Shown: positions 1-49,439, counted from the stretch's first letter. The stretch: 64,000 bases of DNA from Candidatus Aenigmatarchaeota archaeon (GCA_043824495.1 JBDRSV010000005.1:1-64000); one strand, 5' to 3'. Notes: generated by a model from the letters alone, not told the origin. Program-made: numbers and translations.

Positions 1-229
1 ATTTAAATTATTATTTTTCAATAGTTACATAGTCATGTTCCACACTTACCATCGCTGACAATCTTTAGACATCTGGGGCAAGTTACTTGTTCGAGGTAAA
101 GTCATCATCTGTAATTTAGGAATCAACACTCCACAACAACGAAAGACAAATGTATGTCTGTTGCGGTGTGTTTTGAGTTAATTCTAGGACGATAACTATA
201 AACGACGTAACGAACCAGAAGGAGGAATC

Positions 230-1228
230 GTGAGACTGCTCGTCACAAGAACTGGATTGGCAATCCTGTGTATCGGATTGTTAATGATCACCGCAGGATG
301 TGGTGAGAAAGAAGTGGATTACAGCTACAGTGCCTACTCTGTGAGCGGCAACTGGAACCGTGTTAAGGACTTCTACCAGAGAGAAGACGTCACATATCGC
401 TGCGACAAGCTCTTCGAGGCCGAAGAGGGGAACCCAGGAACACTTGACGCTCTTGGTGTAACAGTTGATGAACTTCTTACAATGCGTGACACGTTTCTAG
501 TCGCCGAGATCTGGAGACAGTTTGCAACTTCCGGCGACTCGTGTGACCATCGCGACGTCACATCAGAAGTCGAGAGAATACGTCATCTGGAGAAGCAACT
601 GAAAACCGAAGACTTCGCATCACTCGGCCTCACAGAGGATATGTTGGTGACATGCCAACTCACCGGCCAGATCTTCCCTACACGGGAGAGACTTCTCGTG
701 ATCCAGGCAAATGCCTACGATACTGACTACTCCAATGATATCGCAGGTATCATCAATCTCGCTGAACGGGCCCCATGGGGTCTGAATGATGTTCCGATCA
801 CACTTGACAGCCTCAAAGTTCTGGAAATCACGTGCAAACTGTCAAGTGGACGCAAGGCGGCGAAGAATGCAAGAGTCTACTCTAATACCGGTAATCTGGA
901 ACGTCTACAGGACCAGCTCAAATCGCTTGGCACATACGTAGACGACATTACTGAGAAGTATGCAGGATCTCATCCGGCGTGGGATGATGGCATCCAGGAA
1001 CTTCGAATCTTCTTGAGCGATCACTCGCGTACAAACCTCTTCGAGCGTGCACACCAATTCCAGGCCTACAAGTGGGCCAGATATATGAGGAGAATGACGC
1101 CTAGTCGCAATACGAACGCTAATCCAGTATATCACTTCAAAAATCACCAAGAGCAATCCGGACATACCTTGGGGTACTACGGAGTCACCCAAACGGAACT
1201 CGCGATGTGGACGCGTAAGTGGAGCTGA
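230..1228 (+). CDS. Hypothetical lipoprotein-like protein (E1 cargo)
   Basis: 332-aa ORF with SD AAGGAGG before GTG; basic N-terminus, hydrophobic stretch and lipobox-like TAGC; recurring (L/Y)G(V/L)TxxxL motif. Confidence 0.7.
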   Translation: MRLLVTRTGLAILCIGLLMITAGCGEKEVDYSYSAYSVSGNWNRVKDFYQREDVTYRCDKLFEAEEGNPGTLDALGVTVDELLTMRDTFLVAEIWRQFATSGDSCDHRDVTSEVERIRHLEKQLKTEDFASLGLTEDMLVTCQLTGQIFPTRERLLVIQANAYDTDYSNDIAGIINLAERAPWGLNDVPITLDSLKVLEITCKLSSGRKAAKNARVYSNTGNLERLQDQLKSLGTYVDDITEKYAGSHPAWDDGIQELRIFLSDHSRTNLFERAHQFQAYKWARYMRRMTPSRNTNANPVYHFKNHQEQSGHTLGYYGVTQTELAMWTRKWS

Positions 1229-1290
1229 TCTTCCTGTGACCAGCAGAGTAAACAATCGGGTATTGTGGGTAAAAATCCCGCCTCGATTGT

Positions 1291-1315
1291 TTTATATTGT
1301 CTAGTTAGAGGGATA
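1291..1315 (+). repeat. Right-end motif copy 1
   Basis: TTTATATTGTCTAGTTAGAGGGATA; near-identical copies at 9076-9100 (-), 22623-22647 and 49415-49439. Confidence 0.9.
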
Positions 1316-1422
1316 TATATGGTGGCCTTGCACCAAAACCAGTTACTTGAAAAATCTTGTTTATGTGAACAAAATATGTTCTAAAGCGTTTCACTTATCA
1401 ATATCAAGGATAAATACACTTT

Positions 1423-1947
1423 ATGGATGATGAAATAGTTGATGTAGTGGACGAACATAATAATGTGGTTGGTGAAGCAACAAAAAGAGAGTGTCACGAA
1501 AAAGGATTGTGGCATAGAGCAGCTGATATTCTGCTTTTCAATAAACAAGGTAAACTACTAATCCAGAAAAGATCTCCAGGAAAAGATTTAAATCCAAATC
1601 TCATGTGTTCCTCTGCTTCTGGTCATCTCCAAAAAGGAGATTCTTATGAAGAAGGAGCTAAAAGAGAATTGAAAGAAGAATTGGGAATAGAATGTGAATT
1701 AACTCCAATAATAAAATATATCATGGAAATTTTTTATAGTGATGGAAGAATTGATAAAGAGCATGTGATGCTTTTTCTATGTAATTATGACGGTGGGGAA
1801 TTTAAAATAGACAAAGAAGAGGTGGCTTCAATTCAGTTTCTTTCTATTGATGAAATAGAAGAAATGATAAAGAAAAATAAGAACCAATTCACAAATGGAT
1901 TTCTGCTAGATTTTCAACACTTTTTAGATTTCATTGGTCAGAACTAA
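1423..1947 (+). CDS. NUDIX hydrolase, IPP isomerase type 1-like
   Basis: Idi-like N-terminus (VVDEHNNVVGEATKRECHEKGLWHRA) and Nudix box GHLQKGDSYEEGAKRELKEELGI. Confidence 0.85.
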   Translation: MDDEIVDVVDEHNNVVGEATKRECHEKGLWHRAADILLFNKQGKLLIQKRSPGKDLNPNLMCSSASGHLQKGDSYEEGAKRELKEELGIECELTPIIKYIMEIFYSDGRIDKEHVMLFLCNYDGGEFKIDKEEVASIQFLSIDEIEEMIKKNKNQFTNGFLLDFQHFLDFIGQN

Positions 1948-1969
1948 TAGTTTCCTATACCCATTTAAC

Positions 1970-2248
1970 TTAGAAGAATCTTAATCCTTCTGGTGGTGGT
2001 GCATTCTCTGTTTCTTGTGTATGTTCTTGGCTCTGACCTTCTGTTTGTGGGTAGTAAGCTTGTGCTGCTTGAGCTTCTCTTTTTCTTGCTTCTAAATTGT
2101 CATATGTTAGTCTGCTGAATCTATCAGAACAAGCTCTGCACTGGAAAATAGATCTTACAACAATCTTAAGGGGATCTGTGTTTTCAAGTAGTTTGATGAA
2201 TTCTTCATCAACAAGATATGCTCCCCCGTTACACTTAGGACATTCCAT
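1970..2248 (-). CDS. Zinc-ribbon hypothetical protein
   Basis: CPKC and CRAC pairs; low-complexity Q/E tail. Confidence 0.7.
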   Translation of the reverse strand: MECPKCNGGAYLVDEEFIKLLENTDPLKIVVRSIFQCRACSDRFSRLTYDNLEARKREAQAAQAYYPQTEGQSQEHTQETENAPPPEGLRFF

Positions 2249-2271
2249 ACTATATTATTAGTTAAGGAAAT

Positions 2272-3768
2272 TTAAATAGAAACTGCTTGTTGCCAGCATC
2301 TCTTTGCTGCTTCAATTGTTCCTTCGTAGAGACCCTTGGTAACTGTATCATTTAGAAGTGGACCCAACCCCACAGCTACTATAGGAGCTCCTGTCAACTC
2401 AGCTTCCATTAAAAGATATGCTTTCATTCCATCTGGCATTACATCAAAACCTTGCTCAACAATTTTTTTGACTTCCTCAGGAGACAGTTTACCCCAGTGG
2501 TATGGTTCGCTCCAAATAACTTCAAATTCTCCCTCAAAACTCAAATGATCAACTACTTCACCATTGGGTAGCTTGTAACCAATTATAGCTCTCTGTGGTC
2601 CATATTTTTCCATAAATTCACCAAAAATATCAAGTTTTGTTATTCTTAACAATGTTGAAACAGGAGCAGTTGTGTCTATTTGATATCTGGTCTCAGCAAT
2701 GTTGTTTGCACCTGTTCTCCTTCTATTACCTGAAGTTACTCCAATTTCTCCTCCTATTTCAGCAAGAAATTCTGTTTTTTCTCCAGTGAATTCTCCAGGG
2801 AAGAAACCTGATCCAGCTCTGGTTACATAACCTTTCTTAATTAGATATATAGCATAGTTATCTGGATCTCTTGGAACTGCTGGAAGATAAGCTCCTTTTA
2901 ATATTTCATGAAGGGAAACACCATAAGAAACTGTTTTACCAACACTTCCAAAATCAAGATCAAGACAAGGAGCCTGTGTTCCATTGACAAAAAGATAAGC
3001 ATTTGGATTGTGTAAAGCCAGATCAACTAGTTTCTTGCTTCTTATGATAAACTTGGTTTCAGAATCTCTGTCCCATTTGCTGAATTCATCTGTCCATTTT
3101 CTAAGCCAGTTCATAGTTTCTTCAAACGATATTTCAGGCTCTCCAAATTCTCGTAATTGAGCATTACAAACTCTAACGCCCTTTTCTATTCTTGCTCTTA
3201 CTTCCTGAGAATCTAAATTTAACAGATCAGCAGCTCTAGGATCGGTTCTTGCAGTTCTCCTTGCGCTTGTTGGCCCACTTCCAGATCTTGTGCCTTTCAT
3301 TTCCTTATTCATTGCAAGATCTAATGCAATGTCTTGAGGAAGAGTGATGGTTGCATATTCATCTAAAAATAAATTTTTTCCAGGTACTATTTTACAGCCT
3401 TGTTGGTTAGCTTCTGTGATTTCTTTGTGGAGTCTTTCTAGACTTATTCTCTTCAAAGGTCCCAATATAGAAATGGCATAAGGGGTCCACACTATACCAG
3501 GCGGTAATAAATGTGTAGAAACTTTGTTGCCATTTGGCAAATAAATATTATTTCCTGCATTACCAGAACCATTTGGACCAATACTTAAAACAGCGGGCTT
3601 GTTAGCCAAAACATCAAGAGGATCTCTAAGAACTGCGTTTTCGTAATCAGGATTGTTTTGTAGACCCAAGTCTTCAATTAGCTCACGGATAATGAAACTG
3701 TTCTGTCCTCCCTTGCCTGTGTCTCCGTAATCTCCGCCAGTTGATATCCTGTGTTTAGGTCCATGCAT
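2272..3768 (-). CDS. purA: Adenylosuccinate synthetase-like protein (divergent)
   Basis: GDYGDTGKG P-loop, GNAG, GTQAPCLDLDFG, GVTSGNRRRTG and TKLD motifs are colinear with PurA; adjacent to guaB. Confidence 0.8.
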   Translation of the reverse strand: MHGPKHRISTGGDYGDTGKGGQNSFIIRELIEDLGLQNNPDYENAVLRDPLDVLANKPAVLSIGPNGSGNAGNNIYLPNGNKVSTHLLPPGIVWTPYAISILGPLKRISLERLHKEITEANQQGCKIVPGKNLFLDEYATITLPQDIALDLAMNKEMKGTRSGSGPTSARRTARTDPRAADLLNLDSQEVRARIEKGVRVCNAQLREFGEPEISFEETMNWLRKWTDEFSKWDRDSETKFIIRSKKLVDLALHNPNAYLFVNGTQAPCLDLDFGSVGKTVSYGVSLHEILKGAYLPAVPRDPDNYAIYLIKKGYVTRAGSGFFPGEFTGEKTEFLAEIGGEIGVTSGNRRRTGANNIAETRYQIDTTAPVSTLLRITKLDIFGEFMEKYGPQRAIIGYKLPNGEVVDHLSFEGEFEVIWSEPYHWGKLSPEEVKKIVEQGFDVMPDGMKAYLLMEAELTGAPIVAVGLGPLLNDTVTKGLYEGTIEAAKRCWQQAVSI

Positions 3769-3829: not shown

Positions 3830-5365
3830 TTACTGTGATCTCATGTAGCTTACGAGATTATGTGGCTTTCCTTCTTCTTGTCCACCAAGTGGGTGAGGGA
3901 GTATTTCTGCATTTTGATATAACTCTTCAATGGAACCTGCGCCTGCTTTCTCCATTGCTTTCTTCAATCCTTCTATTAAGTAAGGAATCCAGTGGCCTAC
4001 AGGTCCTCTATCTTCTACATATCCTGTAACACCTTCTGGAACAGCTAGAGAACGTCCACCTCTTGCTAATCCACTATTGACATCCATAGATTCTCTTGAA
4101 CCCATTCCTCTATACTTCTTTACTCTTACACCAGAAGAACTGTAAACATATTCCCCAGGAGCTTCTTCTGTTCCTGCAAGTAAATTACCGGACATTATTG
4201 CATCTGCACCTAAAGCTAGTCCTTTCAATAAAGTACCAGGCCCCGTGAATCCACCGTCTCCAATTATAGGAACTTTTCCGAATTCTTCTTTCATACCATC
4301 TGCAACTAATCTTGCATTATATATAGCAGATAGTTGTGGTCTTCCTATACCAAGATCAGATCTTGTTATACAAATAGATCCAGGACCAATACCAATCTTG
4401 ATTGCATCTGCACCTAGTTCTATCAGTCTCTTAACAGCTTCGTTGTTTGTTGTGTTACCAACCATCACTTCTAATTCTGGGTAACTTTGTTTTACATGAC
4501 TAAGCATATCAAAAACAAATTTTTTGTAAGCATGAGAAGTTTCTATACAAATTCCATCAGCGCCTGCTGCTATCAAAGCATCTAATCTTTCATAGTCTGC
4601 TTTATGTGTTCCAATTGCTCCGAATACAACAAGTCTACCTTTCTTGTCTTTTACAGCATTGGGATAGTCAGTTGATTTTGCTAGATCTCTTCTAGAAACT
4701 ACATAACAAACTTTTCCATTCTCGTCAATTATAGGAGCCATTCCCCAATGACTTTCTAGAAGCTTTATGTAAGCATTTTTTAGTTGATCACCTTGTTCTA
4801 TTTCTCTCATTTGTATATGACGTGTTCTCTCAAAAGGAACCATCCTATCTCTTACTTTAAGACCCGCGTGCATTCCTCTGTCTCCTCCGAACACAGCTTG
4901 TAAGGAATAGCTGTTCTTTGTTAAAATTCCAACAAGTGTTCCGTGAGGATCTCCATTATCTGTAACTATGACGCTACCAACACAATGCTTCTTCATCATA
5001 TTGTCAGCTTCTTCTATTGGAGTGTCTGGTTTGGTTGTATAAGGATGTTCAATAAAACCGCTTCGCCATCTCTTGGTTATTTCTATTTCTTTTACTTGTT
5101 TTTCTATTCCGGTTGAATTATTATCTGATGGGAAATTATTATGTATTACTGGCAGACCGCCTTGATTAGCTAGAGCAATAGCTAGTCTAGATTCTGTGAC
5201 AGTGTCCATAGGTGCTGAAATTAACGGTATTTTTCCTCGGAGTTTTTTTGTGAATTGAGCATCTGTTTTTATTTCGTTTGTACCTAATTCTGAGAAACCT
5301 TCATTTACAATAACATCAGCAAAAGAGAATTCTTTTCCATTCAATTTGGGATGAAGTTTTACCAT
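3830..5365 (-). CDS. guaB: IMP dehydrogenase
   Basis: IPLISAPMDTVTE, CBS subdomain, catalytic GIGPGSICITR, IIGDGG and KYRGMGS motifs. Confidence 0.95.
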   Translation of the reverse strand: MVKLHPKLNGKEFSFADVIVNEGFSELGTNEIKTDAQFTKKLRGKIPLISAPMDTVTESRLAIALANQGGLPVIHNNFPSDNNSTGIEKQVKEIEITKRWRSGFIEHPYTTKPDTPIEEADNMMKKHCVGSVIVTDNGDPHGTLVGILTKNSYSLQAVFGGDRGMHAGLKVRDRMVPFERTRHIQMREIEQGDQLKNAYIKLLESHWGMAPIIDENGKVCYVVSRRDLAKSTDYPNAVKDKKGRLVVFGAIGTHKADYERLDALIAAGADGICIETSHAYKKFVFDMLSHVKQSYPELEVMVGNTTNNEAVKRLIELGADAIKIGIGPGSICITRSDLGIGRPQLSAIYNARLVADGMKEEFGKVPIIGDGGFTGPGTLLKGLALGADAIMSGNLLAGTEEAPGEYVYSSSGVRVKKYRGMGSRESMDVNSGLARGGRSLAVPEGVTGYVEDRGPVGHWIPYLIEGLKKAMEKAGAGSIEELYQNAEILPHPLGGQEEGKPHNLVSYMRSQ

Positions 5366-8400: not shown

Positions 8401-9031
8401 CATCAGGAGATACTAAATCCTCTGTTACTACAACAGTTACTTGAGATGGTCTTTCACCTTCTGTTAATTCAAATGGTTCTTCAATAACCATCCATCTAGT
8501 ATCAATCATTTTCTTTCCAACTTCTTTGAAACCTATTCTATTTCTACATGGTTTTCCGCCTATGACACCTGTGCACAAGAAAGGCTTGGGCATGAAGTTG
8601 CCTCTCCTTTCTATTGTTAGCTTTTCTTCACATTCAGGGCACTCCCATTCAGTTTCCATTATTTCAGGTCTAATTTCAGATGCTTTTCTTACTATACCTT
8701 CAACTGCAAGGAATTTGTTAATATGTCTTGATCTAAGATCTCTGATGCTTGTGAGTTCTGTCAAGTTCTTTACTCTAACTCTAACTGGATTAGGTAAGTC
8801 TATCTGAGTAACAGCGTCTTCTGCTACTTGGAAGAATGTTTTAGGATCAAGCAGAAGCAGCTCAGAAAGTTCAGGACCATGCTTACCAAATTTCTGAATC
8901 CAATCAAAATCAACCTCTAGAGGAGTTCCTGAATTTGATGCTTCTTCAATATCTTTGCTATATCTGTCTCTCAGGAACTCATTGAATCGAAGCGTTAGCT
9001 CGTCCTTTTTCTCTTCAGAAATATAGGCCAT
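5408..9031 (-). CDS. mcm: MCM replicative helicase with intein
   Basis: Zn finger CPEC..C, Walker A GDPASGKSQ, Walker B IDEFEKM, arginine finger LLSRFD and C-terminal winged helix. Confidence 0.97.
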   Translation of the reverse strand: MAYISEEKKDELTLRFNEFLRDRYSKDIEEASNSGTPLEVDFDWIQKFGKHGPELSELLLLDPKTFFQVAEDAVTQIDLPNPVRVRVKNLTELTSIRDLRSRHINKFLAVEGIVRKASEIRPEIMETEWECPECEEKLTIERRGNFMPKPFLCTGVIGGKPCRNRIGFKEVGKKMIDTRWMVIEEPFELTEGERPSQVTVVVTEDLVSPDGRRLTEPGNKLLLCGILKDIPKQNAQGVKLDFFLDVNNFEATEIGWEKLDINKEDEEKIKAFARDPKIYEKLVQSIAPSLYGLEYEKEAIIMQLFGGVTRKLRDRTRIRGDIHLLIIGDPASGKSQLLKLVPDIVPRGKYVSGKGTSTAGLTATVTKDEQFMGGWVLEAGAIVLANKGLLAIDEFEKMSQEDQVAMHEALEQGCYDGSTELIFEDGSKTQIGDFVDQLTQGEKGNNISKIISDKNIHILSSDFKQIKPSKILAVGKHTENSIYKINLNTGQEIKITKDHPVFIIRNGVITPIKARGLKKGDHIPVPKRLSLYGKPQPLPLQKIPEDKKHKKLKLPTRSSKELCEWIGLIIGEGNAEVNRKIKNGVCFSNNDQDILNRYKYLIKKLFSISPYVQTREKDSLEMIRLISRPLYRFIHSIGSQILVEPWNKSLPDWINKSSNEEISYLLRGLFDAEGSVNYPYGTITFSTTSENLAKHIRELLLRFEIFSGIYLDKSMKGNRKHVAYKLQLSGKENIKNFDKFIGFTGRRKHKLQKLVTKRTVSSVWNHVPNIVPLVEQIRKELNLSYDEIVGHELTLTRKKNNITKEMLRKIVKSFDSRIVKIEKTLEKLKSPIHYTEFRKLREEFRISRSEIARKLKISEQNLWYWKAVKKDEKLFKKSITVTENILEKMLSQKRIIENLRFVLEAPVEWIRIKSISLKRGKQWVYDVAMNPTGIFIGNGIICHNSVSIAKASIVATLPAQTSVLAGGNPKFSRFDPYMAISKQITISPTLLSRFDLKFALMDKPDTTMDKKVVDHILKSRDIEATDNTPTIDRDNIRKYIAYAKDKCKPELTAEVGKMLKNFYVSSRKRATTEGGGAIPLSLRQFEALIRISEASAKIQLSPVVRIEDAERAIKLMTYSLKQLGYDPETGQIDIDRSEGGVSSSERTKIRSILEIINELSTKKKEIAIGEIEELAKKEGIEEVDEIIDKLKREGMLYEPRPSFIQKV
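6200..7792 (-). mobile_element. Intein (531 aa) with LAGLIDADG homing endonuclease, within mcm
   Basis: HEALEQG|CYDG...IICHN|SVSIAKA junctions (Cys1, terminal His-Asn, Ser+1); WIGLIIGEG and LLRGLFDAEG LAGLIDADG motifs; internal HTH-like segment ISRSEIARKLKIS. Confidence 0.93.
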
Positions 9032-9075
9032 AAGATTAATTGGATGTGAAATTTAAATAATTCTTTCTGCCTATA

Positions 9076-9100
9076 TATCCCTTTAAATTGACAATATAAA
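9076..9100 (-). repeat. Right-end motif copy 2
   Basis: Reverse complement reads TTTATATTGTCAATTTAAAGGGATA; lies upstream of mcm. Confidence 0.9.
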
Positions 9101-9217
9101 ACACCTAAGAGTCTTGGTTACCTCATGGCCCTAAAGATATTCGACGATTGGACCTTGAATCCTTGCACATCTACATGTGTGCGTTATTCGCCGAAAAGTT
9201 CTTTTTGAGTGCATGGT

Positions 9218-9481
9218 CTAGAGAATCAGTACGAGAAGTCCTGATAACGCGGCAATAATTTCGCACCAAAAGCCGACTATCAGGAATGAGATGGCGTCGC
9301 CTCTAATGACATACGCTGTAGAATAGTTCCTGATACAGACAGAACTCCGTGACTTTTTGTCTTCTCTTTTACCAAGAACCATGAAAACGAACCCGGCAAG
9401 CAAGAAGACTGCGATGCCGATCAATGCTACTATCTTCATTTCTTTCACCTCTCTTCGTTTCTCCCTTTCGTTCAAAACCAA
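9218..9481 (-). CDS. Small two-TM hypothetical protein (E2 cargo)
   Basis: 87 aa with two hydrophobic segments; the start codon is uncertain. Confidence 0.55.
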   Translation of the reverse strand: MVLNEREKRREVKEMKIVALIGIAVFLLAGFVFMVLGKREDKKSRSSVCIRNYSTAYVIRGDAISFLIVGFWCEIIAALSGLLVLIL

Positions 9482-9553
9482 AAGACGAGCGGATGTTTAT
9501 CAACATCATATGGCATGTTTCAAGTGCCTAGAAACTCGTCGTGTTCTTTTCTT

Positions 9554-10417
9554 CTAGCGTTTTAGGAAGACCCACTCCTTGTCGCCGACAATGATCTTGT
9601 CGTTGTGGCTTAAAATGACACTTCCATCACGATCCACAGGGATTCCGTTGACCGTGATACCCGAACTTCCATTCATATTCCTGAAAATCCATTCATCAGC
9701 ATCCCCATCCTTATTGACTCTCTTGAGGATTTGAGCATGGATTCCGCCGTCGTTGAGATCCCTGGTGTCACCAACTCCAATTTCCGAGCCCTTGATGTAG
9801 TAGTCGGTGCGGACGGTGAAGAAGTCATCGCCCTCCTGCATTAGCATCGGATTTATCATGAGGCCCTTGTCCACACGGTCTAGGAACAGCTTCAGATCCG
9901 TGACCAACAGATGACATTTGAGATGTTGTAACATGTCGTAGAGGTCCTCGATTTCTACCCGGCTCATTAAGAGTGTCACTACCCTGTAGATTTCGGAAAA
10001 TGTCACACTGTCCGATACCGCCATCTGAGAAACATCGTCGCGGCTGAGAGGTGTGGGTTCGGGCGTTATGAAAATTGTGTAGTCTCCGAATGAGAGGCAA
10101 GTCTCTTCGCCGCTCCGTACCCATATCCGATTCGAAATGATGTCGTGATTTCCGTTAATCCTCAGGTCAGGTATACAGTGGTCGATGGCTGCCAGACATG
10201 AGCCTGATGGGGTCACGAATATCTTGAACAACGGTGGTTCGATGGCGCTGTTATGATCGCCTCTGGCGGCTTCTTCATCGAGCTTGACATCTTGGTTATG
10301 GATCATTCCATTTCCGCAGCCAATCCAGAGGAACTGCCCCCGACAGAGAGTCCTTTTTTCAGGAACCACATTCTCTCTTTTAAATCCTTTTCGAAGTACT
10401 CCAATTGTAAATATCAT
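9554..10417 (-). CDS. FHA-like domain protein (probably two degenerate FHA-like domains)
   Basis: The C-terminal WIFRNMNGSSGITVNG...LSHNDKIIVGD pattern matches the FHA strand order; there is a similar N-terminal segment; SD GGGAGG. Confidence 0.6.
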   Translation of the reverse strand: MIFTIGVLRKGFKRENVVPEKRTLCRGQFLWIGCGNGMIHNQDVKLDEEAARGDHNSAIEPPLFKIFVTPSGSCLAAIDHCIPDLRINGNHDIISNRIWVRSGEETCLSFGDYTIFITPEPTPLSRDDVSQMAVSDSVTFSEIYRVVTLLMSRVEIEDLYDMLQHLKCHLLVTDLKLFLDRVDKGLMINPMLMQEGDDFFTVRTDYYIKGSEIGVGDTRDLNDGGIHAQILKRVNKDGDADEWIFRNMNGSSGITVNGIPVDRDGSVILSHNDKIIVGDKEWVFLKR

Positions 10418-10475
10418 CTTTACAATTCCTCCCTATGAGATCCCCGATCCGTCGCCGGGGATCTCTGCCATTTCG

Positions 10476-11438
10476 TTAATTTGTCGGGAAACACGTATTC
10501 ATTACTGTGTGAAGCCATCCTCCTCCATAGAGATAGTTTCCCACAAGAGTCAGGCCTCCGATGGCAGGCGGTGTAAGCTTTCTTCTCCACCTAGGATCAT
10601 CGGGGTCCAGAGAGTTCAAGTGGCTCTCTCTGATGGCGTTCATGAGAATTTCTGCGCGGCCAGGAATGAGAGCGAGCCTACTCACGTCGGGAAGATATCT
10701 CTTTCCCGGGCCCATATCGGAGAAAGGAATGTCGGTATCGGCGGAGACTACAAGGTCGTGTTTCCACAAGACCTTGTCGAAGACCACTCCGAGAATACGC
10801 ATGTTTCTGAGAGCATCTGTTATGTCAGTTTCGTCGTGGAGTTCGTGGAAGATATGATCCTGAACTGTTCCTTTAACTGTGTCCGAATCTACATTTCCAC
10901 CGATTCCCCAGCATGCACCAGGATACATTGGAGTTCCACTGCCCCGTCGAGTTAATACAAACCCGTCCGGGCATTTGAGCCATAGTACTGGTGCGAGAGG
11001 ACCTTGGGGTAAAGACATGTTCTCCCGGGTGAATAATTTGCGATACTCGGGTCGTTGCGTCGCCATGACCTCGGAGAACAACATCTTCTCGACATTGATG
11101 GTGGTCGAATTTAGTGGCCAGTTTGTCATCCGGTATTGGATACCGGGATACATAATCGGTGTCCAGGAATCGGTTGTGGTCTTTCTTCCCCAGAGTCCAT
11201 GATGGTGTTCTTCTTCAAAAGGACGGAAGTCCAGAAGAATTTCGCCCTCTGCAGTGAGCGCCTCAAACTTCGCCAGGACCATGCCGTTCCATATGCTGAT
11301 CTCGTAAGGCGTCGCCAATTTGGGATACCTTGTCACATGTTCCTGACTGCCGTCAAACTTCACTATTGATGCAAACGGGACACCTGGTGCCGGCACAGCC
11401 CACCATGTAGTTGTCTGTATTTTCTCGGGTAGTTTCAT
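10476..11438 (-). CDS. Divergent NUDIX-fold protein (E2 cargo)
   Basis: FVLTRRG..MYPG.CWGIGGNVD followed by the degenerate Nudix box HELHDETDI. Confidence 0.55.
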   Translation of the reverse strand: MKLPEKIQTTTWWAVPAPGVPFASIVKFDGSQEHVTRYPKLATPYEISIWNGMVLAKFEALTAEGEILLDFRPFEEEHHHGLWGRKTTTDSWTPIMYPGIQYRMTNWPLNSTTINVEKMLFSEVMATQRPEYRKLFTRENMSLPQGPLAPVLWLKCPDGFVLTRRGSGTPMYPGACWGIGGNVDSDTVKGTVQDHIFHELHDETDITDALRNMRILGVVFDKVLWKHDLVVSADTDIPFSDMGPGKRYLPDVSRLALIPGRAEILMNAIRESHLNSLDPDDPRWRRKLTPPAIGGLTLVGNYLYGGGWLHTVMNTCFPTN

Positions 11439-11461
11439 TCTCGATCTGCCTTTCTATGATT

Positions 11462-11731
11462 TCACTTCGCTGGCGTTTCGGATTGACTGCCACCGGGCTT
11501 AGGAGCGCCATTTGTTGCGATGCTCGCCGGCGATGGGAATGTTCCCTCATGTCCTCGTCTGAGAGCCGCGTCCAGAATTTCCAGGTGCTCTGACGATCTG
11601 TTTTTTGCGATCCATTCACGACATTGCGGGATCGCCGAAGCCTCGACCTGCGATAGAATGATGTTGATCAGTTCACTTGCAGGGAGAGCCCCCTTATCCA
11701 GGAACTCTTCGAATGTCAGTGTCTTCAGCAT
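11462..11731 (-). CDS. Small protein related to the C-terminal helical domain of the neighbouring FHA paralogs
   Basis: FEEFLDKG..L..I.SQV..C aligns by eye with FESLAKG..L..I.SQV..C of 12564..13133; same GGAGGGCAT(T/G)GCAATG start context. Confidence 0.6.
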   Translation of the reverse strand: MLKTLTFEEFLDKGALPASELINIILSQVEASAIPQCREWIAKNRSSEHLEILDAALRRGHEGTFPSPASIATNGAPKPGGSQSETPAK

Positions 11732-11766
11732 TGCAATGCCCTCCAGAAATGTGTGGGGTGGTCGGA

Positions 11767-12459
11767 CTAGTATTGGGCCGGAGTTTCTATTGTTAGAAGT
11801 GTGTTGTACATTTCATCTGGTAGCTTGACATACATCAGGTCCTGAACTCTTTCTCTTAGGAACCTGACCTTAGGAGTAAGGTCAGTTCCCTTGTCCGACC
11901 AGAAGTCGTCTGGATCGAGACAGTTTATTCCGTTATTGATGATGAATTTCATGGACCTGAAGAAAGCGTACCGGCTGTTATCTTCGATGAGATTTGCCAG
12001 GATGACTTCAGATTTCCAGTCATCTGCCGGAGACAGGACGGAAGTAGAATCCTGATTTTCGTATTGCCGGTTGAGTTTATAGCATGTTTCGCTGAGAGTC
12101 CAAATGCTTTTCTTGAACTTTTTGGCGGTTCCTCGAATAACCAGTTCCACAACCTTCAGTGTGGTCTTCGACCCTTCTGACATGCCTTGTGGCATGACGT
12201 CTTTGAATTCTTCTTCGAACTGGTTCTTGTAATATCCGAGGCATTTGCTGAGCTTCGTTCTTGAGCTGTCCGGAAGCAATTCCATCAGGTCGTCGAATGT
12301 TTCCAGTACCTCGTCGGTGCGAACATCAACGGTCTGGGCATATGCCTTTTCCGTACTCTGTTCCCATGCTGGATTCGGCTTGTCTCCGTCGCCACACGAG
12401 ATCATGGTCGCGAAGATGATCACGAACAAGACGACCGAGATAGTTCTCTTTGTTTTCAT
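11767..12459 (-). CDS. Hypothetical lipoprotein-like protein (E2 cargo)
   Basis: MKTKR, hydrophobic core and MISC lipobox-like Cys; SD GGAGG. Confidence 0.7.
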   Translation of the reverse strand: MKTKRTISVVLFVIIFATMISCGDGDKPNPAWEQSTEKAYAQTVDVRTDEVLETFDDLMELLPDSSRTKLSKCLGYYKNQFEEEFKDVMPQGMSEGSKTTLKVVELVIRGTAKKFKKSIWTLSETCYKLNRQYENQDSTSVLSPADDWKSEVILANLIEDNSRYAFFRSMKFIINNGINCLDPDDFWSDKGTDLTPKVRFLRERVQDLMYVKLPDEMYNTLLTIETPAQY

Positions 12460-12563
12460 GTTGCTAACCTCCGTAAACGTGATACAATTCAGTTAATTTC
12501 GGTTTCCGACTATCCGAGGTGCATCGGACTTGCACTCGGATTTCTGCATGGAACCGCCACGCG

Positions 12564-13133
12564 TCATTCAGGTCGGGATTTGGTGATCTCTTTCAGGATC
12601 AGTTCCGTCATTTTGACTTTCCTGGCATGGCTTCTGATTATGGCAACTCGCTCGTAGATCGGGATTATCTTCCGTGCAGTGTCAGGATGATACTTGCAGA
12701 GAAATCCGATGCAAGCAATAACATCATCCTGCAACACTTGTGAGAAAATCATGAGAGCGAGACGTTCTCCGGAAACTGATCCCTTTGCCAGAGATTCGAA
12801 CTCGTCCTTGTCGATGAGGGCACGGAACTCGAATTTCAGTTTCCCGGTTGTCACGACATCGCCGTTTAGTATTGTACAATCGGCCGAGCCGCATGGCTTG
12901 CCATTGATGAATGTCAAGTTTCCCGATGTTTCGTCGTGGATGCATAACTCGTCGTTGGTCAGTTTGATACTGAAATGTGTATCCTTGAGTCCGAATTTTC
13001 CACCTTCTGGTATCGACCATTCGGATTCTGTGGATGTCCCAAAACGTACCGATGTATCCGGAACTAGATGTAAAGTGGCCTTTCCTTCTTTCGCTCCGGA
13101 CCAGCGTACTTCTAGAAAGCTCCCCATTGCCAT
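12564..13133 (-). CDS. Degenerate FHA-domain protein (start revised to 13133)
   Basis: SD GGAGGGC precedes ATG GCA ATG at 13133, matching the paralog start MAMG; FHA pattern VRFG...THFSI...IHDE...TFING...GDVVTTG. Confidence 0.72.
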   Translation of the reverse strand: MAMGSFLEVRWSGAKEGKATLHLVPDTSVRFGTSTESEWSIPEGGKFGLKDTHFSIKLTNDELCIHDETSGNLTFINGKPCGSADCTILNGDVVTTGKLKFEFRALIDKDEFESLAKGSVSGERLALMIFSQVLQDDVIACIGFLCKYHPDTARKIIPIYERVAIIRSHARKVKMTELILKEITKSRPE

Positions 13134-13263
13134 GCCCTCCTTCGGTGGTATGTGTAGTGTTTCATTAACTTTTGTTTTAGTTTCCGGCGAACCCGTAACA
13201 TTGGAATTGCCCGGGTTTTCTACTGGAACCATCAGCGTCATTCAGGCCGGTTCATGTTACCGG

Positions 13264-13932
13264 TCAGTCAGATCCCAGAGTGGATAGATCGTCGTCACCT
13301 ATGTCTCTTGCTAACGCTCTCTCCGATTTAATTGGGGTCGGAGTACGATCCGCCGCTTTTTGGATAGCGAGATCTGTCTTATTGATAATGTCGGCACGCG
13401 TGATCGCGTTCCCTTCGTGTAAAATGGAGGATGCACGTTCTACGATTCGAATCATCCATTCCCGTGCAGCTTGTGGCCTCTTCTCACACAAGACATCAAG
13501 ACAACTGGGGAAGTCTTGTGTTCTCACTCTTGTGAGAAGTCTGAGAACCAGTTCTTCGTCACTGGCTCGGCTGGCTAACATGGCAGTGAATTCTTCCGTA
13601 TCGTAGAGAACATCGAACCAGATTCTGAGTTCTCCGATGCGAATCACGCTTATATTGTAGACGTACGTCCCACCGGACTGGACTTTTTCCTCATCCACGA
13701 AAGTGCCCGCGTTGGTTCCCAGATCATGGATCCTTAGACACTCGCCGTCATTGGCCATTGTGATCGAGAAGTGTCTGCCTTTGAAGTCTTCCTCATCAGC
13801 CGGAATCAGGAAATCGTCCCCTTCGGATTCCCCGAACACAAGTGTTTGATTCCGATCAATTGGAATCATGTTCTCGTCTGCTGATGATGTCCCCTCTGTC
13901 CATGTTACATTTAGATAACGTCCCATTGCCAT
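13264..13932 (-). CDS. Degenerate FHA-domain protein, paralog of 12564..13133
   Basis: LVFG...RHFSI...IHDLGTNAGTFVD...IRIG pattern; shares the MAMG start and the C-terminal helical domain. Confidence 0.78.
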   Translation of the reverse strand: MAMGRYLNVTWTEGTSSADENMIPIDRNQTLVFGESEGDDFLIPADEEDFKGRHFSITMANDGECLRIHDLGTNAGTFVDEEKVQSGGTYVYNISVIRIGELRIWFDVLYDTEEFTAMLASRASDEELVLRLLTRVRTQDFPSCLDVLCEKRPQAAREWMIRIVERASSILHEGNAITRADIINKTDLAIQKAADRTPTPIKSERALARDIGDDDLSTLGSD

Positions 13933-14007
13933 GTCCTCCTTCAGATAGATAGCTATATTTCAGTTGCCTTCGTTTCAGTGATTAGTTCTTCTATACTTTT
14001 CGAATGC

Positions 14008-14550
14008 CTAACCGAAAATTTTACGTGCCATTCCTCGAGCCTCGCGATTTGAGAGAATAGCTCCCAGTAAAGCAGTTGTCACACACGCCAAGAACGTTAA
14101 GACAATTGGATAATAGAGGCTCGTGTTCCATGCAAACATGGGATCACCTGAAGAACCTGATCCTACGAAGAGCCAGATGATCCAGAAAATCGCGATCCAT
14201 GTCAGCCAATTGATGTAGGCAATGTAGATACCCTCACCCAGAAGAAATCTGACATAGCCTTCTGGGATAGATGATTCCGACCAATCTCTTTTGAGCATAT
14301 GTCCTCTCAGTCTATAGAGACGGAATGTTGTGAGAGGTATCATCAGGCTGCAGAGTTCGATGTAAACTCGTGTCATTTGTAGTTGTCCTGATGTCTCTTG
14401 TTCTATCAAGAGATTGCCCAATAGTGCCGCGGGAATGACGATCACCCAGAAATGCCAGGTGAATCTATCTTTGTTCGAGCGATGTACTAATAGGAAAACC
14501 ATGGCCAGAACAAGAGAAAAGATTGAGATGAAGATTATGAAGTTGAACAT
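14008..14550 (-). CDS. Multi-pass membrane hypothetical protein (E2 cargo)
   Basis: About five hydrophobic segments in 180 aa. Confidence 0.7.
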   Translation of the reverse strand: MFNFIIFISIFSLVLAMVFLLVHRSNKDRFTWHFWVIVIPAALLGNLLIEQETSGQLQMTRVYIELCSLMIPLTTFRLYRLRGHMLKRDWSESSIPEGYVRFLLGEGIYIAYINWLTWIAIFWIIWLFVGSGSSGDPMFAWNTSLYYPIVLTFLACVTTALLGAILSNREARGMARKIFG

Positions 14551-14828
14551 TTTATATCTTCCTCGGATAGAGTTCTGTCGGTATACCTCAGACTATGTAA
14601 AACACCATACAGAAGTCATTTGATATGACTATTGTTCTGTGTGGTGTTGGTTCCTAGGTTACAATGCCAATATATCTGCAAGGAAATTTTCCTCAAAGAT
14701 GTCTAAAGTCAATTGGCGTGAAAGTGTGGAGCATGATATTTTGACTATTACTATTGGATAGTGAATATTTCATAGTAAACTTTATATTATTTAGCATTGA
14801 GAGTCGTAACAGTAAATATAGAAATTTA

Positions 14829-21109: not shown

Positions 21110-21476
21110 GATTAATAATTGGCTTGGCTCCTAATAAAAATCGGAGTTTTCTGGTGTTTTTGGGCATATCTTTAAAAATCTGTCAAGGAAAAGCTGATCA
21201 ACAGCATAAAGGTGACTATCATATTCCACTCTCAAAAAATCTACAATTTGTATCAGATAAACAAAGCGTTTAATCTGAAAATGTCTTCATGGACCCATAA
21301 ATCAACGCACACAAAACACGAAATAACACAAAGTGCATTGTTAGCTTAAGCTATGGAGAATGAGAAGCCTGAGAGTGATTTTTTCTGTCTTCTGTAAAGA
21401 AATTACCAGACTTTTGTCTTAGACGAGAGTCTTTCGCCAATAGAAAAAAATGATTCATTGATATGGGGGGTGAACA

Positions 21477-22307
21477 ATGATATCGTGTAAATCAAAACAG
21501 GTGGATTCAACACGGCTTGACGCTAGGCCGAAAAAGCGACGAATGCCAGTTCAGGTCTCGCGTGCCTGGGATGCGTATTTCAGCTCCGGCGACCCTGGTG
21601 TTCGTCAGAACCTTCTCAATCATTACCTGCCGCTCGTATGCAATGTGGCGGGTAGGATGGCTCTAGGCTTTCCCAAAGCTGTTGAGCTGAATGATTTGAT
21701 TTCCACAGGCACGATCGGCTTGTGCCAGTCCTTAAAGAACTTCGATCCTAAACGAGGCGTCAAGTTCGAAACCTTTGCGGTTCCCCGAATCCGTGGTGCA
21801 ATTCTCGACGAGATGCGCAGCTTGGATTGGGTGCCGCGTTCCACACGCTCGAAAGCACGTAAGATTGATCGAGTCACAACTCAGATCGAACAACAACAGG
21901 GACGTGTGTCAATGCATAATGAACTCGCTGTCCTTCTGAAGATCCCGCTGGACGATCTGCTAGTGGTGCTGACAGATATTTCGGCATCAAGGCTTATGTC
22001 CTTGGATGAATTGGTATATCGAGAGGAGGACAATAGGCAGGTTCCGAGAGTCGAGACACTCGAACTTCCTGTGAGAAGAGATGCCTTGAGAGAGGTCGAA
22101 CGCAGAGAGCTAAAGGTATTCCTCATTAACGCCATTTCTACTCTCAACGAGCAAGAGACACATGTCATTGGCTTATACTACTACGATGAGCTTACCATTC
22201 GTGAGATTGGCGAACTCATGAATCTCTCGGAATCCCGAATCTCGCAGGTTCACACTAGGTCTGTGGAAAAGTTGCGAAGAATGGTGCGCGATAGATTCGG
22301 ATACTGA
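21477..22307 (+). CDS. fliA: Bacterial RNA polymerase sigma-28 factor, FliA/WhiG family
   Basis: NDLISTGTIGL..FDPKRGVKFETFAVPRIRGAILDEMRSLDWVPRS (region 2) and LYYYDELTIREIGELMNLSESRISQVH (region 4). Confidence 0.95.
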   Translation: MISCKSKQVDSTRLDARPKKRRMPVQVSRAWDAYFSSGDPGVRQNLLNHYLPLVCNVAGRMALGFPKAVELNDLISTGTIGLCQSLKNFDPKRGVKFETFAVPRIRGAILDEMRSLDWVPRSTRSKARKIDRVTTQIEQQQGRVSMHNELAVLLKIPLDDLLVVLTDISASRLMSLDELVYREEDNRQVPRVETLELPVRRDALREVERRELKVFLINAISTLNEQETHVIGLYYYDELTIREIGELMNLSESRISQVHTRSVEKLRRMVRDRFGY

Positions 22308-22574: not shown

Positions 22575-22622
22575 GAAATACCAAGCTCGAGAATCATGTG
22601 TGTCCCATAACACACTTGGTTC

Positions 22623-22647
22623 TTTATATTGTCTAATTAGAGGGATA
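22623..22647 (+). repeat. Right-end motif copy 3
   Basis: TTTATATTGTCTAATTAGAGGGATA, ending 3 bp before the ATG at 22651. Confidence 0.9.
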
Positions 22648-22650
22648 TGA

Positions 22651-43765: not shown

Positions 43766-43790
43766 GAATATAATTTATTTTAGAGTCTTA

Positions 43791-47203: not shown

Positions 47204-47441
47204 TAAATTCTACAAACATAGTGCATGACTACGAAAACCTAGATTGAAATGCCTATTTAAATTTTACCTTTAAGTTCTATTCATCATGCTCCACAATTCA
47301 CGCCATTTAAGTCTTTTGACTGATTATTACCAAAATATCTGGTAATAGTTTGGCTTTTGTATTTTAGGTAAAACAACGGAAGACTACTAAAGTCTTCACA
47401 TCATAGAGAAACGCTTAGTTTTGAGAATATGGGGGTGTGAA

Positions 47442-47786
47442 ATGCGTACAGAAACATTATGGACAGGCATGATCTCCGAAGAATATGGTTTCAGATGTGG
47501 TCCAGTTCCAGAGATCTATGAATTCAAAGTGACAAGAGAAGGAGGAATCTGCTTCGTCCAACAGAACAAGGGACCAACTGGACTCGTGACACTAAACGTA
47601 GAACCTATTACAGGGAAAGTCAAACTCAAGACAGGGGATGTTATTGAGACTCCGGACAAATGGGTAAGGTACGTCTTACAGGAACATCAATCGGCAGTGG
47701 GAATCGAGATCCCTGTCCGTCAGGACCTCGAAGAAATAGACCCTGAAGACGATCTTCGTACCTTACCAACACCAGGCTGGTTCTGA
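47442..47786 (+). CDS. Hypothetical protein (start revised to 47442)
   Basis: GGGGGTG SD-like motif before ATG at 47442, similar to the start context of the sigma gene. Confidence 0.6.
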   Translation: MRTETLWTGMISEEYGFRCGPVPEIYEFKVTREGGICFVQQNKGPTGLVTLNVEPITGKVKLKTGDVIETPDKWVRYVLQEHQSAVGIEIPVRQDLEEIDPEDDLRTLPTPGWF

Positions 47787-47858
47787 GTTTGGTGTAAACT
47801 GGGAGAGCAGAGGGAAAGCAAATTATAGATGAATTTGAACCAGTAAAGGAGTACAACC

Positions 47859-48443
47859 ATGCCGTTCAAGATTATCCTAGTTGATGGAGACGGTGCCGGA
47901 GTGAGCGGTGTCGATATCCAACTCAATTTCCATGGTGTAAAGCCGGATGAAAGATTCACAGTAGGCACAACTGACGCAAACGGTGAGTTGGAACTGGCAG
48001 TCACCACCGTTGACGATGTAGAACTGAAGAGCGCAATCTTTGATATCTCGTTGGACGGTGAGAATTTCATGGAATGCGCGACCTTCACCTACGTTCCTGG
48101 TGAATCTCTGAAACTGAGTAAAATTCCAGTTTCAATGGCCACTTCGCCAGACAGTTTCCAAGTTCTGATCTTACAGGAAAACGACAATACACCAGTAGAA
48201 GGTGCAAGTGTCGCGATGCTCAAGGGAGGCAAGGTCGTTTGGAGCACACTGACAAGTGAGCATGGCCTCGCAACCATAGACAACGCGCAAACCGAAAAAT
48301 GTGAGTTGTGGGTCCAAGGTTCTCTCGTTAAGATCCGTGATGAACTCCATGATGACAGAGGAACCATTCGCATTGTTCATGTGGGCGAGCCCGATGGAAC
48401 TACATGGGCACTTGTCACAGGGATCGATGCCGACGAAGAATAA
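47859..48443 (+). CDS. Tandem prealbumin/carboxypeptidase-regulatory-like beta-sandwich protein
   Basis: VDGDGAGVSGVDIQL..TTDANG and NTPVEGASV..TSEHG repeats; SD AAGGAG. Confidence 0.7.
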   Translation: MPFKIILVDGDGAGVSGVDIQLNFHGVKPDERFTVGTTDANGELELAVTTVDDVELKSAIFDISLDGENFMECATFTYVPGESLKLSKIPVSMATSPDSFQVLILQENDNTPVEGASVAMLKGGKVVWSTLTSEHGLATIDNAQTEKCELWVQGSLVKIRDELHDDRGTIRIVHVGEPDGTTWALVTGIDADEE

Positions 48444-48517
48444 TCATATGTCCTACGACAAAGAATTCATTGAATGGGAGTTATAATCACACCCCACTAA
48501 CCAGAAGGAGTACACCC

Positions 48518-49150
48518 ATGTACAGAGTTTCGTTAGGGAGGGATGGAGTTAAAGTTGAGCTCGATTGCTCCAAAACAACACCGGACACCGGAACCGCTGA
48601 AGCCGTCACGACTGCGAATGGCGGCGTCGCCGAGTTTCAGGTCACCGTGAATGGAACCGAAATTGACGGCGAATTAATCACATTGAAGCTGAACGGCGCC
48701 GAATTTGCGGACGGAGCGCAGTTCACTTACACACCCGGTGAAATCCTGGAACTTCATGAGGTTCCTGCTGTCACAGTGACATCACCCGCAGAATTCCGTG
48801 TCCGGGTTCTGAGGGTAGCGACAGATGCCGAAACGGTTCCAGTACCTGTGCAGGACGTATCTGTTCTGATCACCGAGTCAGATAGCAGCAAAATTCTCCT
48901 GAACACACGGACGGACGCCAGGGGATTTGCTATTATGGTAGAACCAACCGGTGAAGAGATCAGGATCTTTGTCGACGGTGTGGATCTTGATATCGATCCT
49001 CCCTACGGTGACGCAGGAACCGTTCACGTCGTGTTCGTGGACGATGTCGACGAGGGGACCAACTGGGTTCTCACAACCCCGCTTGGTGTCAAGGTCGAGG
49101 ATGCCGGCGACTTAGCCGACAAAACCAAAGAAGTGTCGCAGCAGTCGTAA
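48518..49150 (+). CDS. Paralog of 47859..48443 (start revised to 48518)
   Basis: Same AAGGAGTACA(A/C)CCATG context; shares A.FTY.PGE.L.L and a W.L C-terminal motif. Confidence 0.72.
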   Translation: MYRVSLGRDGVKVELDCSKTTPDTGTAEAVTTANGGVAEFQVTVNGTEIDGELITLKLNGAEFADGAQFTYTPGEILELHEVPAVTVTSPAEFRVRVLRVATDAETVPVPVQDVSVLITESDSSKILLNTRTDARGFAIMVEPTGEEIRIFVDGVDLDIDPPYGDAGTVHVVFVDDVDEGTNWVLTTPLGVKVEDAGDLADKTKEVSQQS

Positions 49151-49166
49151 TTCACGGCGACACCAC

Positions 49167-49196
49167 ACAAACTCGTGCCGGGGATGGGTTCATGCC
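49167..49196 (+). other. GC-rich hairpin between cargo genes
   Basis: GCCGGGGATGGG-TTCATG-CCTGTCCTCGGC forms 12 pairs including G-U. Confidence 0.5.
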
Positions 49197-49223
49197 TGTC
49201 CTCGGCTCCTGAAGGAGATGAAC

Positions 49224-49388
49224 ATGGGATTCTGGTTAAGATCTGCTGATGATGGTTCAGAAGGTCTTTCGGTTCTCGAGATAGTGGGAGTTGCTATCAT
49301 CGCTGGAATCGTGTTGGTGGCAGCTATTAGTGTGCCTATTATCATTTTTTCCCCTAAGATCAATAATCAGAGAAACAAAACCATATGA
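49224..49388 (+). CDS. 54-aa type IV pilin-like peptide (not in ORF track)
   Basis: SD GAAGGAG; G|LSVLEIVGVAIIAGIVLVAAISVP matches a class III signal with Glu at +5 and the pilin N-terminal helix. Confidence 0.6.
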   Translation: MGFWLRSADDGSEGLSVLEIVGVAIIAGIVLVAAISVPIIIFSPKINNQRNKTI

Positions 49389-49414
49389 GAAGATGTGAAT
49401 TTTGCTCTGATTGT

Positions 49415-49439
49415 TTTATATTGTCTACTTAAAGGGATA
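49415..49439 (+). repeat. Right-end motif copy 4
   Basis: TTTATATTGTCTACTTAAAGGGATA, 50 bp upstream of tRNA-Ser. Confidence 0.9.

Follow-up and report, generated by a model that had tools for sequence, protein, structure and literature searches.

Foreign-gene cassettes ending at a solo IS6-like repeat in a Candidatus Aenigmatarchaeota genome: a possible platform for cross-domain gene capture

Introduction

The attC sites of integrons are 57-141 nucleotides (nt) long, carry R''/L''...L'/R' boxes (RYYYAAC ... GTTRRRY), and recombine at a G|TT crossover. IS1 InsA and IS911 OrfA are N-terminal transposase domains that bind their own inverted repeats. One-ended transposition and target-primed insertion both leave a precise joint that is defined by sequence at one side and a variable joint at the other. 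Integrons also exist in Archaea (Ghaly et al., 2022; PMC9668308). Insertion sequences (IS) of the IS6 family have terminal inverted repeats with a G at the tip, then TGT, then caa (Varani et al., 2021; PMC7986276). The same source describes pseudo-compound transposons and translocatable units for IS26 (PMC7986276; Harmer, Moran and Hall, 2014, as cited there). DPANN archaea carry many bacterial genes (PMC8407114), and the route by which these are integrated and expressed is largely unknown. Here we describe a family of foreign-gene cassettes found in a 64,000-nt stretch of a Candidatus Aenigmatarchaeota archaeon (GCA_043824495.1, contig JBDRSV010000005.1, positions 1-64000; hereafter "the window" on contig C5 of genome G000) and in the rest of that genome. 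Each cassette has a left end (L) with promoter and leader, co-oriented genes, and a short conserved right end (R).

The genome is a metagenome-assembled genome (MAG) of 1.01 Mb in 29 contigs and is 80% complete. No description of such cassettes was found in the literature searched. Our preferred reading, for and against which we find the case about equally strong, is that the cassettes belong to an IS6-derived platform for foreign genes.

Results and Discussion

The cassettes and their right end

A first-pass annotation, made from the DNA of the window alone, had described four GC-rich blocks in an AT-rich archaeal backbone. Sliding-window composition agrees with it, giving a GC content of 0.44-0.51 at positions 1-1400, 9000-14700, 21200-22650, and 47300-49450 (cassettes A to D, Table 1) and 0.30-0.39 in the backbone; block values are 47-50% GC, compared with ~35%. 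The backbone is archaeal; an intein-bearing MCM gene follows the right motif of block B, and a tRNA-Ser gene follows that of block D. The 25-nt right motif occurs in the window only four times (1291, 9076 on the minus strand, 22623, and 49415), at the right edges of the blocks as described earlier, with 0 copies expected. The genome holds 18 copies, and a reversed control pattern gave 0. The conserved right end is ~27 nt long. Seventeen of the 18 copies are at one edge of a GC-rich block; the 18th (R') is beside a gene encoding a Zn-ribbon/helix-turn-helix (HTH) protein.

A scan of all contigs with the R pattern gave ~17 cassettes, confined to contigs C5, C24, and C11, which matches the earlier expectation of many more copies genome-wide. 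All 17 are on 339 kb of the 1.01-Mb assembly, and none is on the large contigs C10 (106 kb) and C15 (97 kb); this clustering suggests a plastic chromosomal region or a sampling effect. Every major open reading frame (ORF) of the 17 cassettes is directed from L to R, so the left-to-right orientation noted for the window holds throughout the family. Same-orientation arrays occur (K-K2 and G-R-R'-F), and in K-K2 and R'-F the next TCAT box is 48-53 nt past R. No recombinase is encoded in any cassette or, as stated earlier, elsewhere in the window. No 8-bp target-site duplication was visible by eye at the flanks of cassettes B, C, and D, where the left boundary is not base-precise. The general picture in the first-pass annotation, a genome-wide and non-autonomous family with two different ends and unrelated bacterial-type cargo in a DPANN host, has therefore stood.

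Table 1. Features of cassettes A to D in the window.
Feature	Position	Strand	Description
Cassette A L	1..229	+	TATA-like ATTTAAATT at 1-9; box TCATGTTCCAC at 33-43; leader 33-229; hairpin ~71-97
Cassette A cargo	230..1228	+	332-aa lipoprotein-like orphan, GGAGG upstream
Cassette A 3' hairpin	1250..1293	+	AAACAATCGGG...CCCGCCTCGATTGTTT; -19.0 kcal/mol
Cassette A R	1291..1317	+	Solo IS6-type inverted repeat
Cassette A post-R motif	1324-1339	+	GGCCTTGCACCAAAAC, the 16-nt motif described in the text
Cassette B R	9074..9100	-	43 nt upstream of host MCM start (9031)
Cassette B 3' hairpin (weak)	9101..9145	-	-9.2 kcal/mol
Cassette B cargo	9218..14550	-	Eight co-oriented ORFs: three FHA-domain proteins, lipoprotein, membrane proteins, orphans
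Cassette B L	14551..14800	-	Box TCATGCTCCAC at 14726-14736; leader 14551-14736; promoter region upstream
Cassette C L	21170..21476	+	Box TCATATTCCAC at 21219-21229; diverged leader with GACTTT/GTCTTTCG motifs
Cassette C cargo	21477..22307	+	FliA/WhiG flagellar sigma-70-family factor; Pfam Sigma70 r2, r3, r4
Cassette C 3' hairpin	22590..22623	+	-16.6 kcal/mol
Cassette C R	22623..22649	+	Host ORF starts 4 nt after, at 22651
Cassette D L	47250..47441	+	TATA TATTTAAAT; box TCATGCTCCAC at 47284-47294; leader
Cassette D cargo	47421..49388	+	Four co-oriented ORFs; two are paralogous Ig-like/macroglobulin-like proteins
Cassette D 3' hairpin	49363..49414	+	AATCAGAG...CTCTGATT
Cassette D R	49415..49441	+	48 nt upstream of host tRNA-Ser (49489-49572)

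Scanning one genome per prokaryotic species placed the R core mostly in Aenigmatarchaeota and other DPANN MAGs, plus nine contigs of one Methanoperedens MAG. These nine contigs have a variable flank, then GA|TATTGTCAATTTAAAGGGATA, and then an interior that is identical up to the contig end, which is the signature of a multicopy IS end. In other archaea, a Zn-ribbon/HTH ORF is found ~65 nt past the R motif. At one such locus (L070) this ORF is followed by a DDE_Tnp_IS240/rve_3 ORF, and the whole forms a complete element of 982 bp, the other end of which carries the motif in inverted orientation (14 of 16 bases). The intact repeat GATATTGTCAAnTTAAAGGG fits the IS6 consensus of 15-20 bp with tip G, internal TGT, and caa (PMC7986276). 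Judged by its sequence, R is the solo terminal inverted repeat of an archaeal IS6-family insertion sequence without the two tip bases. Cassette copies keep repeat positions 3-25 only, and in place of the GA tip they have a T-run plus A or G. The first-pass annotation had found that the ends match none of the consensuses of integron cassettes, pdif modules, IS200/605, and IS91/ISCR-like elements; R does fit a known consensus, that of IS6, and the system is therefore not unrelated to known mobile elements. Cassettes A and F have an L type and an R variant (TTAGAGGG) in common and carry different cargo. R is absent from all contig ends of the genome, which gives no indication of IS copies hidden at contig breaks.

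Two further observations concern R and its surroundings. A 16-nt motif, GGCNTTGCACMAWAAC, occurs 6-10 nt past R in cassettes A, M, and O and has one further copy elsewhere in the genome (sites at window 1324-1339, C11:7182-7197, C24:127372-127387, and C24:136506-136521); it is also found past an R in a relative (L085). In a Methanobacteriota MAG (L082, ~4129-4168), two IS6 repeats stand back to back (GATATTGTCAATTTAAAGGGATATAATTAGACAATATC) as a 38-bp ends-only element.

The hairpin before R

A hairpin directly precedes each R, with its 3' arm touching the T-run, and it is clear in 15 of the 17 cassettes. Mean folding energy is -15.2 kcal/mol, compared with -9.0 kcal/mol for random cargo segments (Mann-Whitney p = 3e-7). 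The hairpins are 20-48 nt long, without GTTRRRY by eye, and their sequences vary, as those of independent terminators would; 10 of 17 share the 3' arm YTSRTTG and have complementary 5' arms. The joint between R and the hairpin T-run is precise.

The order of promoter, promoterless foreign genes, and 3' hairpin with a variable centre resembles that of an integron. In an integron-like system, a tyrosine recombinase would exchange cassettes using hairpin-plus-R as the attC analogue and the L box with its promoter as the attI analogue. The YTSRTTG arms with their complements would suit such a site, and the genome has seven Phage_integrase matches, all outside the window. Only one of these, a ~420-aa tyrosine-recombinase gene (C24:46596-47087), is beside an R; it ends ~55 nt from the inner side of the R of cassette E and is convergent. 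We nevertheless regard integron-like exchange as quite improbable. The hairpins are short and show no attC boxes by eye, the identity of R as an IS6 repeat is demonstrated, the cassettes occur one by one at scattered sites and not in an array beside an integrase, and the position of the left joint is not fixed. The occurrence of integrons in Archaea (PMC9668308) counts on the other side.

Reuse of cassette slots in relatives

Orthologous sites were compared in G292, a same-genus Aenigmatarchaeota genome with ~70% nucleotide identity to G000, and in L126, a metagenome contig from a third species. An R-like sequence lies upstream of MCM in all three, each time with different cargo. The MCM slot of G292 holds a response-regulator gene, a small ORF, and a pilin-like gene, none of them related to the cargo of cassette B, followed by a hairpin and R; its contig ends inside this cargo, and the left side is unseen. 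L126 has an NTP-transferase orthologue, a TATA element, a TCATGCTTCA box, three unrelated ORFs, an R-like motif, and MCM, in that order. The NTP-transferase gene, promoter, and TCAT box are present at this slot in both G000 and L126, the promoter region of L126 aligns with that of cassette B, and its MCM is 67% identical. At the cassette C slot, G292 carries IMP-cyclohydrolase-like and AICARFT-like (purine-synthesis) genes, followed by a hairpin and R. An R-ended trehalose-phosphatase insertion in G292 corresponds to an R-less, short intergenic empty site in the window (16068-16167), so a difference between occupied and empty site, which the first-pass annotation had suggested looking for, does exist in a relative. 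These comparisons indicate that R is gained or lost with cargo at some sites and kept through a change of cargo at others. Slots are conserved and their cargo is replaced; the lack of relationship between cargoes, first noted between blocks, extends to orthologous slots.

The Zn-ribbon/HTH gene

The genome has a single Zn-ribbon/HTH gene (C24:108305-108691), which encodes a DDE-less protein of 129 aa. R' abuts its start, and a full R that closes cassette G lies 26 nt past its stop. The overlap of R' with the gene start is found in G000, G131, and G190, and the gene adjoins an R in at least seven genera. In an exhaustive search, its nearest relatives (50-60% identity) were without exception stand-alone and 92-110 aa long. 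DDE_Tnp_IS240 transposases of 280-315 aa match the protein over their first ~95 residues at 35-40% identity, and by this homology it descends from the N-terminal DNA-binding domain of an IS240-type transposase.

A small Zn-ribbon/HTH gene is present in 21 of 40 family genomes, usually as one copy and often beside R. Among 31 family genomes, 11 have both R and the gene, 2 have R only, 6 have the gene only, and 12 have neither (odds ratio 11, Fisher p = 0.009, with the relatedness of genomes ignored). R is probably the binding site of this protein.

Other enzymes were compared with the distribution of R. One Y1_Tnp gene is on contig C23, away from the cassettes, and Y1_Tnp is present in 5 of 13 genomes with R and 2 of 18 without, which is weak co-variation. 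A Y2_Tnp search found nothing and was uninformative because its controls were also blank. IS110-type DEDD transposase (PF01548) had no match in G000. The first-pass annotation had suggested looking for an enzyme whose presence follows the ends; only the Zn-ribbon/HTH relic does so, and it is DDE-less, whereas a reverse transcriptase does not (see below) and the Y1 HUH gene does not clearly do so.

A possible IS6-derived platform

According to the preferred reading, a cassette would be an expression unit consisting of an archaeal-type promoter, the leader L, co-oriented bacterial genes, and a terminator-like hairpin fused to R. Foreign DNA would be joined beside a resident IS end, as IS26 translocatable units insert beside an existing IS26, with the hairpin T-run meeting the outer edge of the solo R. 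The joint would be precise at R and variable inside L, and the domesticated DNA-binding domain would recognise R. At recurrent intergenic slots, the promoter and TCAT box on the left and R on the right persist across species, and the cargo is replaced.

Several results weigh against this reading. PF13610 (DDE_Tnp_IS240) has no match in G000, which is 80% complete, and a DDE profile search of the 11 further family genomes with R that it covered likewise recovered no IS6 DDE transposase; the earlier proposal that the cassettes are mobilised in trans is thus not supported by these searches. The DDE domain is found in only 2 of 40 family genomes (G194 and G197), both of which lack R. R-type repeats do not flank the full-length DDE proteins of these two genomes. 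The GA tip is missing, with a T-run plus A or G in its place, which simple strand transfer by a transposase would not produce. A solitary cassette has one repeat and no R at its left; a product of the IS26 type would be bounded by an IS end at each side. The joint is always at a hairpin, and intact IS copies in other archaea are not beside hairpins. In another relative, R directly follows a tRNA-Met gene, which is not foreign DNA; what R adjoins is therefore a stem plus T-run, whether or not the DNA is foreign. Because the genomes searched lack a catalytic domain, and because of the missing tip, the single end, and the hairpin joint, three rival explanations are retained. We also advance, more tentatively than the IS6-derived reading itself, a capture platform for genes of another domain that works without its parent transposase. 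It would have fixed slots, an R putatively bound by the Zn-ribbon/HTH protein, and whole terminator-ended bacterial units, and it would act by a mechanism not yet described, either DNA- or RNA-templated.

The tRNA-Met case favours the rival in which R is a terminator-seeking solo repeat. Here R, or a short element containing it, would insert alone immediately 3' of a stem plus T-run. Its place at the end of foreign operons would reflect only the fact that, in an AT-rich genome, most sites of this kind are found there. The operons themselves would have come by an unrelated route, and R would be kept and serve the Zn-ribbon/HTH regulator as an operator, promoter, or insulator. With TTTATATT, R has a near-consensus archaeal TATA box in its 5' part, and in 11 of 17 cases a co-oriented host gene or further cassette starts within ~115 nt (4 nt in cassette C). 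In several genera, the start of the gene for the regulator itself is overlapped by R', an arrangement expected of an autoregulatory operator. However, all 17 copies of R coincide exactly with the compositional boundary and have foreign DNA on a single side, which independent insertion into an existing block would not predict. Promoter function is not general either, since five of the 17 copies face a convergent gene, and conserved L ends and slot reuse are left unexplained. We think this account unlikely.

Left ends

The sequence TCATRYTCCAC has exactly four matches in the window (33, 14726 on the minus strand, 21219, and 47284), one per block at its left edge, compared with 0.18 expected by shuffling; 0 of 100 shuffles reached four. 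The box reported by the first-pass annotation is therefore present at each block. With one mismatch allowed there are nine matches against 4.7 expected, and specificity is lost. Genome-wide, seven of 13 exact copies are within ordinary host coding DNA. For both reasons the 11-mer alone is a weak marker; the extended L (promoter plus leader) is restricted to cassettes. L is ~200 nt long rather than 11, with a leader of ~170 nt.

A strong L family extending over 150-280 nt includes cassettes A and B, plus E and F on C24. The left ends of A, E, and F are mutually 81-88% identical, with A aligned to E/F over 120-183 nt; similarity is weak in two further cassettes and marginal in D. Contig C5 begins inside the L repeat of cassette A. 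By eye, a TATA-like element is present ~25-30 nt 5' of the TCATG-type box in most of the 17 cassettes. Three words recur in the leaders: GTCTTT (10 of 17 cassettes, 1.5 expected), GCTGAC (8 of 17, 0.4 expected), and GACTTT (8 of 17, 1.0 expected). A leader hairpin ~40-65 nt past the box has four compensatory pairs between B and the A/E/F type. L matches no Rfam family, and BLAST with the leader gave matches in G000 only, with marginal matches at most in same-family genomes. Scans of viral contigs for R and L found nothing.

The joint between leader and cargo varies in position. Similarity between A and E stops at A position 183, and between A and F at 153. Positions 169-224 of A recur in F 565 nt further on, before the second gene of F, and it looks as if a gene was inserted inside the leader. 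R-like sequence at the left ends was ruled out by a position-weight matrix of R, which found nothing above shuffles in the left regions on either strand; because of this result, L and R are truly different ends, as the earlier comparison of the two ends had indicated. L was also considered as a remnant of an IS interior, which is unsupported; the resemblance is limited to the TATA-to-TCATG spacing in the transposase promoter of intact copies.

Cargo

By homology, the cargo is bacterial in origin, Zixibacteria-like within the FCB group. The FliA of cassette C is 68-71% identical to Zixibacteria FliA, and homology to the Zixibacteria flagellar locus is limited to the fliA ORF and excludes its operon neighbours. 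Donor boundaries are not mappable: for FliA, even the best donors reach only ~70% identity, with homology that does not extend past the ORF. The cassette A protein has no Pfam match and no homologue besides itself among 5.8 billion proteins, and two cargo proteins besides FliA are orphans. Other cassettes encode thiolase, enoyl-CoA hydratase, acyl-CoA dehydrogenase, 3-hydroxyacyl-CoA dehydrogenase, M20 and M32 peptidases, an EamA transporter, and a protein with a type IX secretion sorting domain. Motifs of Shine-Dalgarno type were seen upstream of 8 of 14 cargo genes and 3 of 12 host genes, in agreement with the earlier remark that most cargo genes have them.

The extent of the cargo also bears on RNA-mediated capture. 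In this scheme, terminated bacterial transcripts would be reverse-transcribed from a nick at the outer edge of R, where the A-rich bottom strand would pair with the 3' U-tract, and the complementary DNA (cDNA) would be joined variably in L, as in target-primed reverse transcription. A 3' boundary exactly at the terminator T-run, a fuzzy 5' joint in L, strictly co-oriented cargo, and donor homology confined to fliA are all consistent with it, and the genome has one reverse transcriptase. The reverse transcriptase was rejected as a co-varying enzyme because it is not associated with R (4 of 13 genomes with R and 5 of 18 without, odds ratio 1.2). Moreover, cassettes of 9-12 kb with 11-12 genes are long for cDNA, and a bacterial transcript would have to get into the archaeon. 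We consider RNA-mediated capture improbable.

Assembly soundness

A chimeric origin, with bacterial reads joined to archaeal contigs at a short repeat during assembly or binning, appears barely credible. The genome is an incomplete MAG in many contigs, the cassettes are on three contigs only, and contigs break inside L, all of which could suit an artefact. However, the same hairpin-plus-R architecture is present in independent MAGs of other studies and at orthologous slots in three species, the R copies are mutually different, and each block is flanked on both sides by host genes on the same contig. A Logan contig of SRR26275509, from an independent assembly, matches window 97-3680 at 99.97% and spans the cargo, hairpin, and R of cassette A and the host NUDIX gene. 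The chimera that the first-pass annotation had raised as a concern is thereby set aside for one junction, the right junction of cassette A.

Other features of the window

The host MCM gene (5408-9031, minus strand, 1207 aa) contains a ~530-aa intein with a LAGLIDADG-like homing-endonuclease region, and its orthologues in G292 and L126 (675-676 aa) are intein-free. In the region 49489-52209, the tRNA-Ser gene is followed 2.6 kb downstream by a 47-nt partial copy of itself, which corresponds to its 3' half and is 85% identical; between the two are a Fic/DOC gene and a glycosyltransferase-like gene, and no integrase is present. The partial copy looks like the att duplication of a small integrated element. 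At 38745-40400, three tandem diverged units of ~600 nt (67-77% identical) encode paralogous proteins with a GTPSFFI motif.

Comparison with known systems

Every recent bacterial block in this genome has an archaeal promoter and leader, stops at a terminator hairpin, and ends at a transposon-end relic for which the host has a gene with the matching domain. If this is a working system, it would offer a concrete route, open to testing, by which bacterial genes reach archaea and would be a case in which a transposase fragment has been domesticated together with its binding site. The findings suggest a reusable platform for cross-domain gene capture.

Among described systems, those that move DNA by HUH transposases (IS200/IS605, IS91/ISCR, Helitron) have conserved subterminal hairpins at their two different ends; here, no HUH transposase is found at the cassettes and the 3' hairpins vary in sequence. 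IS110 differs in its DEDD transposase, for which G000 has no PF01548 match. In pdif modules, XerC/XerD-type 11-6-11 sites lie on both sides in alternating orientation, whereas the cassette ends are mutually unrelated and R belongs to IS6. One-ended transposition and target-primed insertion share with the cassettes one precise, sequence-defined joint and one variable joint; they differ in that the orientation of R puts the cargo outside the IS end, and reverse transcriptase is unassociated with R.

Integrons are similar in several respects. A platform promoter is followed by unrelated, co-oriented, mostly promoterless foreign genes that have been captured, the cassette ends in a hairpin-forming site, and cargo turns over at a fixed location. 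The differences are that no IntI adjoins the cassettes and the window is without a recombinase, that the hairpins are short, show no attC boxes by eye, and are next to a conserved 3' element that is an IS6 repeat, and that the cassettes, instead of forming one array, are spread over single slots upstream of host genes.

The Zn-ribbon/HTH protein is comparable to InsA and OrfA, being a stand-alone N-terminal domain without a catalytic domain and having a repeat that overlaps the start of its own gene. In contrast to those proteins, it is encoded by a single-copy gene kept in many genera without the parent transposase, and its presumed sites mark foreign-gene cassettes.

IS6 and IS26 are among the closest systems. 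The cassettes differ from them in having a solo 27-bp end without the GA tip, one end rather than two when solitary, and no DDE transposase between two repeats, such as L070 of another archaeon has. A pair of inverted ends is not seen, as the matrix scan gave no R-like sequence in the left regions; the other boundary is an unrelated promoter and leader, the joint is always at a hairpin T-run, and the cargo is from another domain of life. On the other hand, R is the family's terminal repeat, the cargo abuts the IS end at its outer tip, and the cassettes form same-orientation arrays (K-K2 and G-R-R'-F). New cargo is found beside a resident end with no target duplication obvious by eye, and the associated protein is the N-terminal DNA-binding domain of the family.

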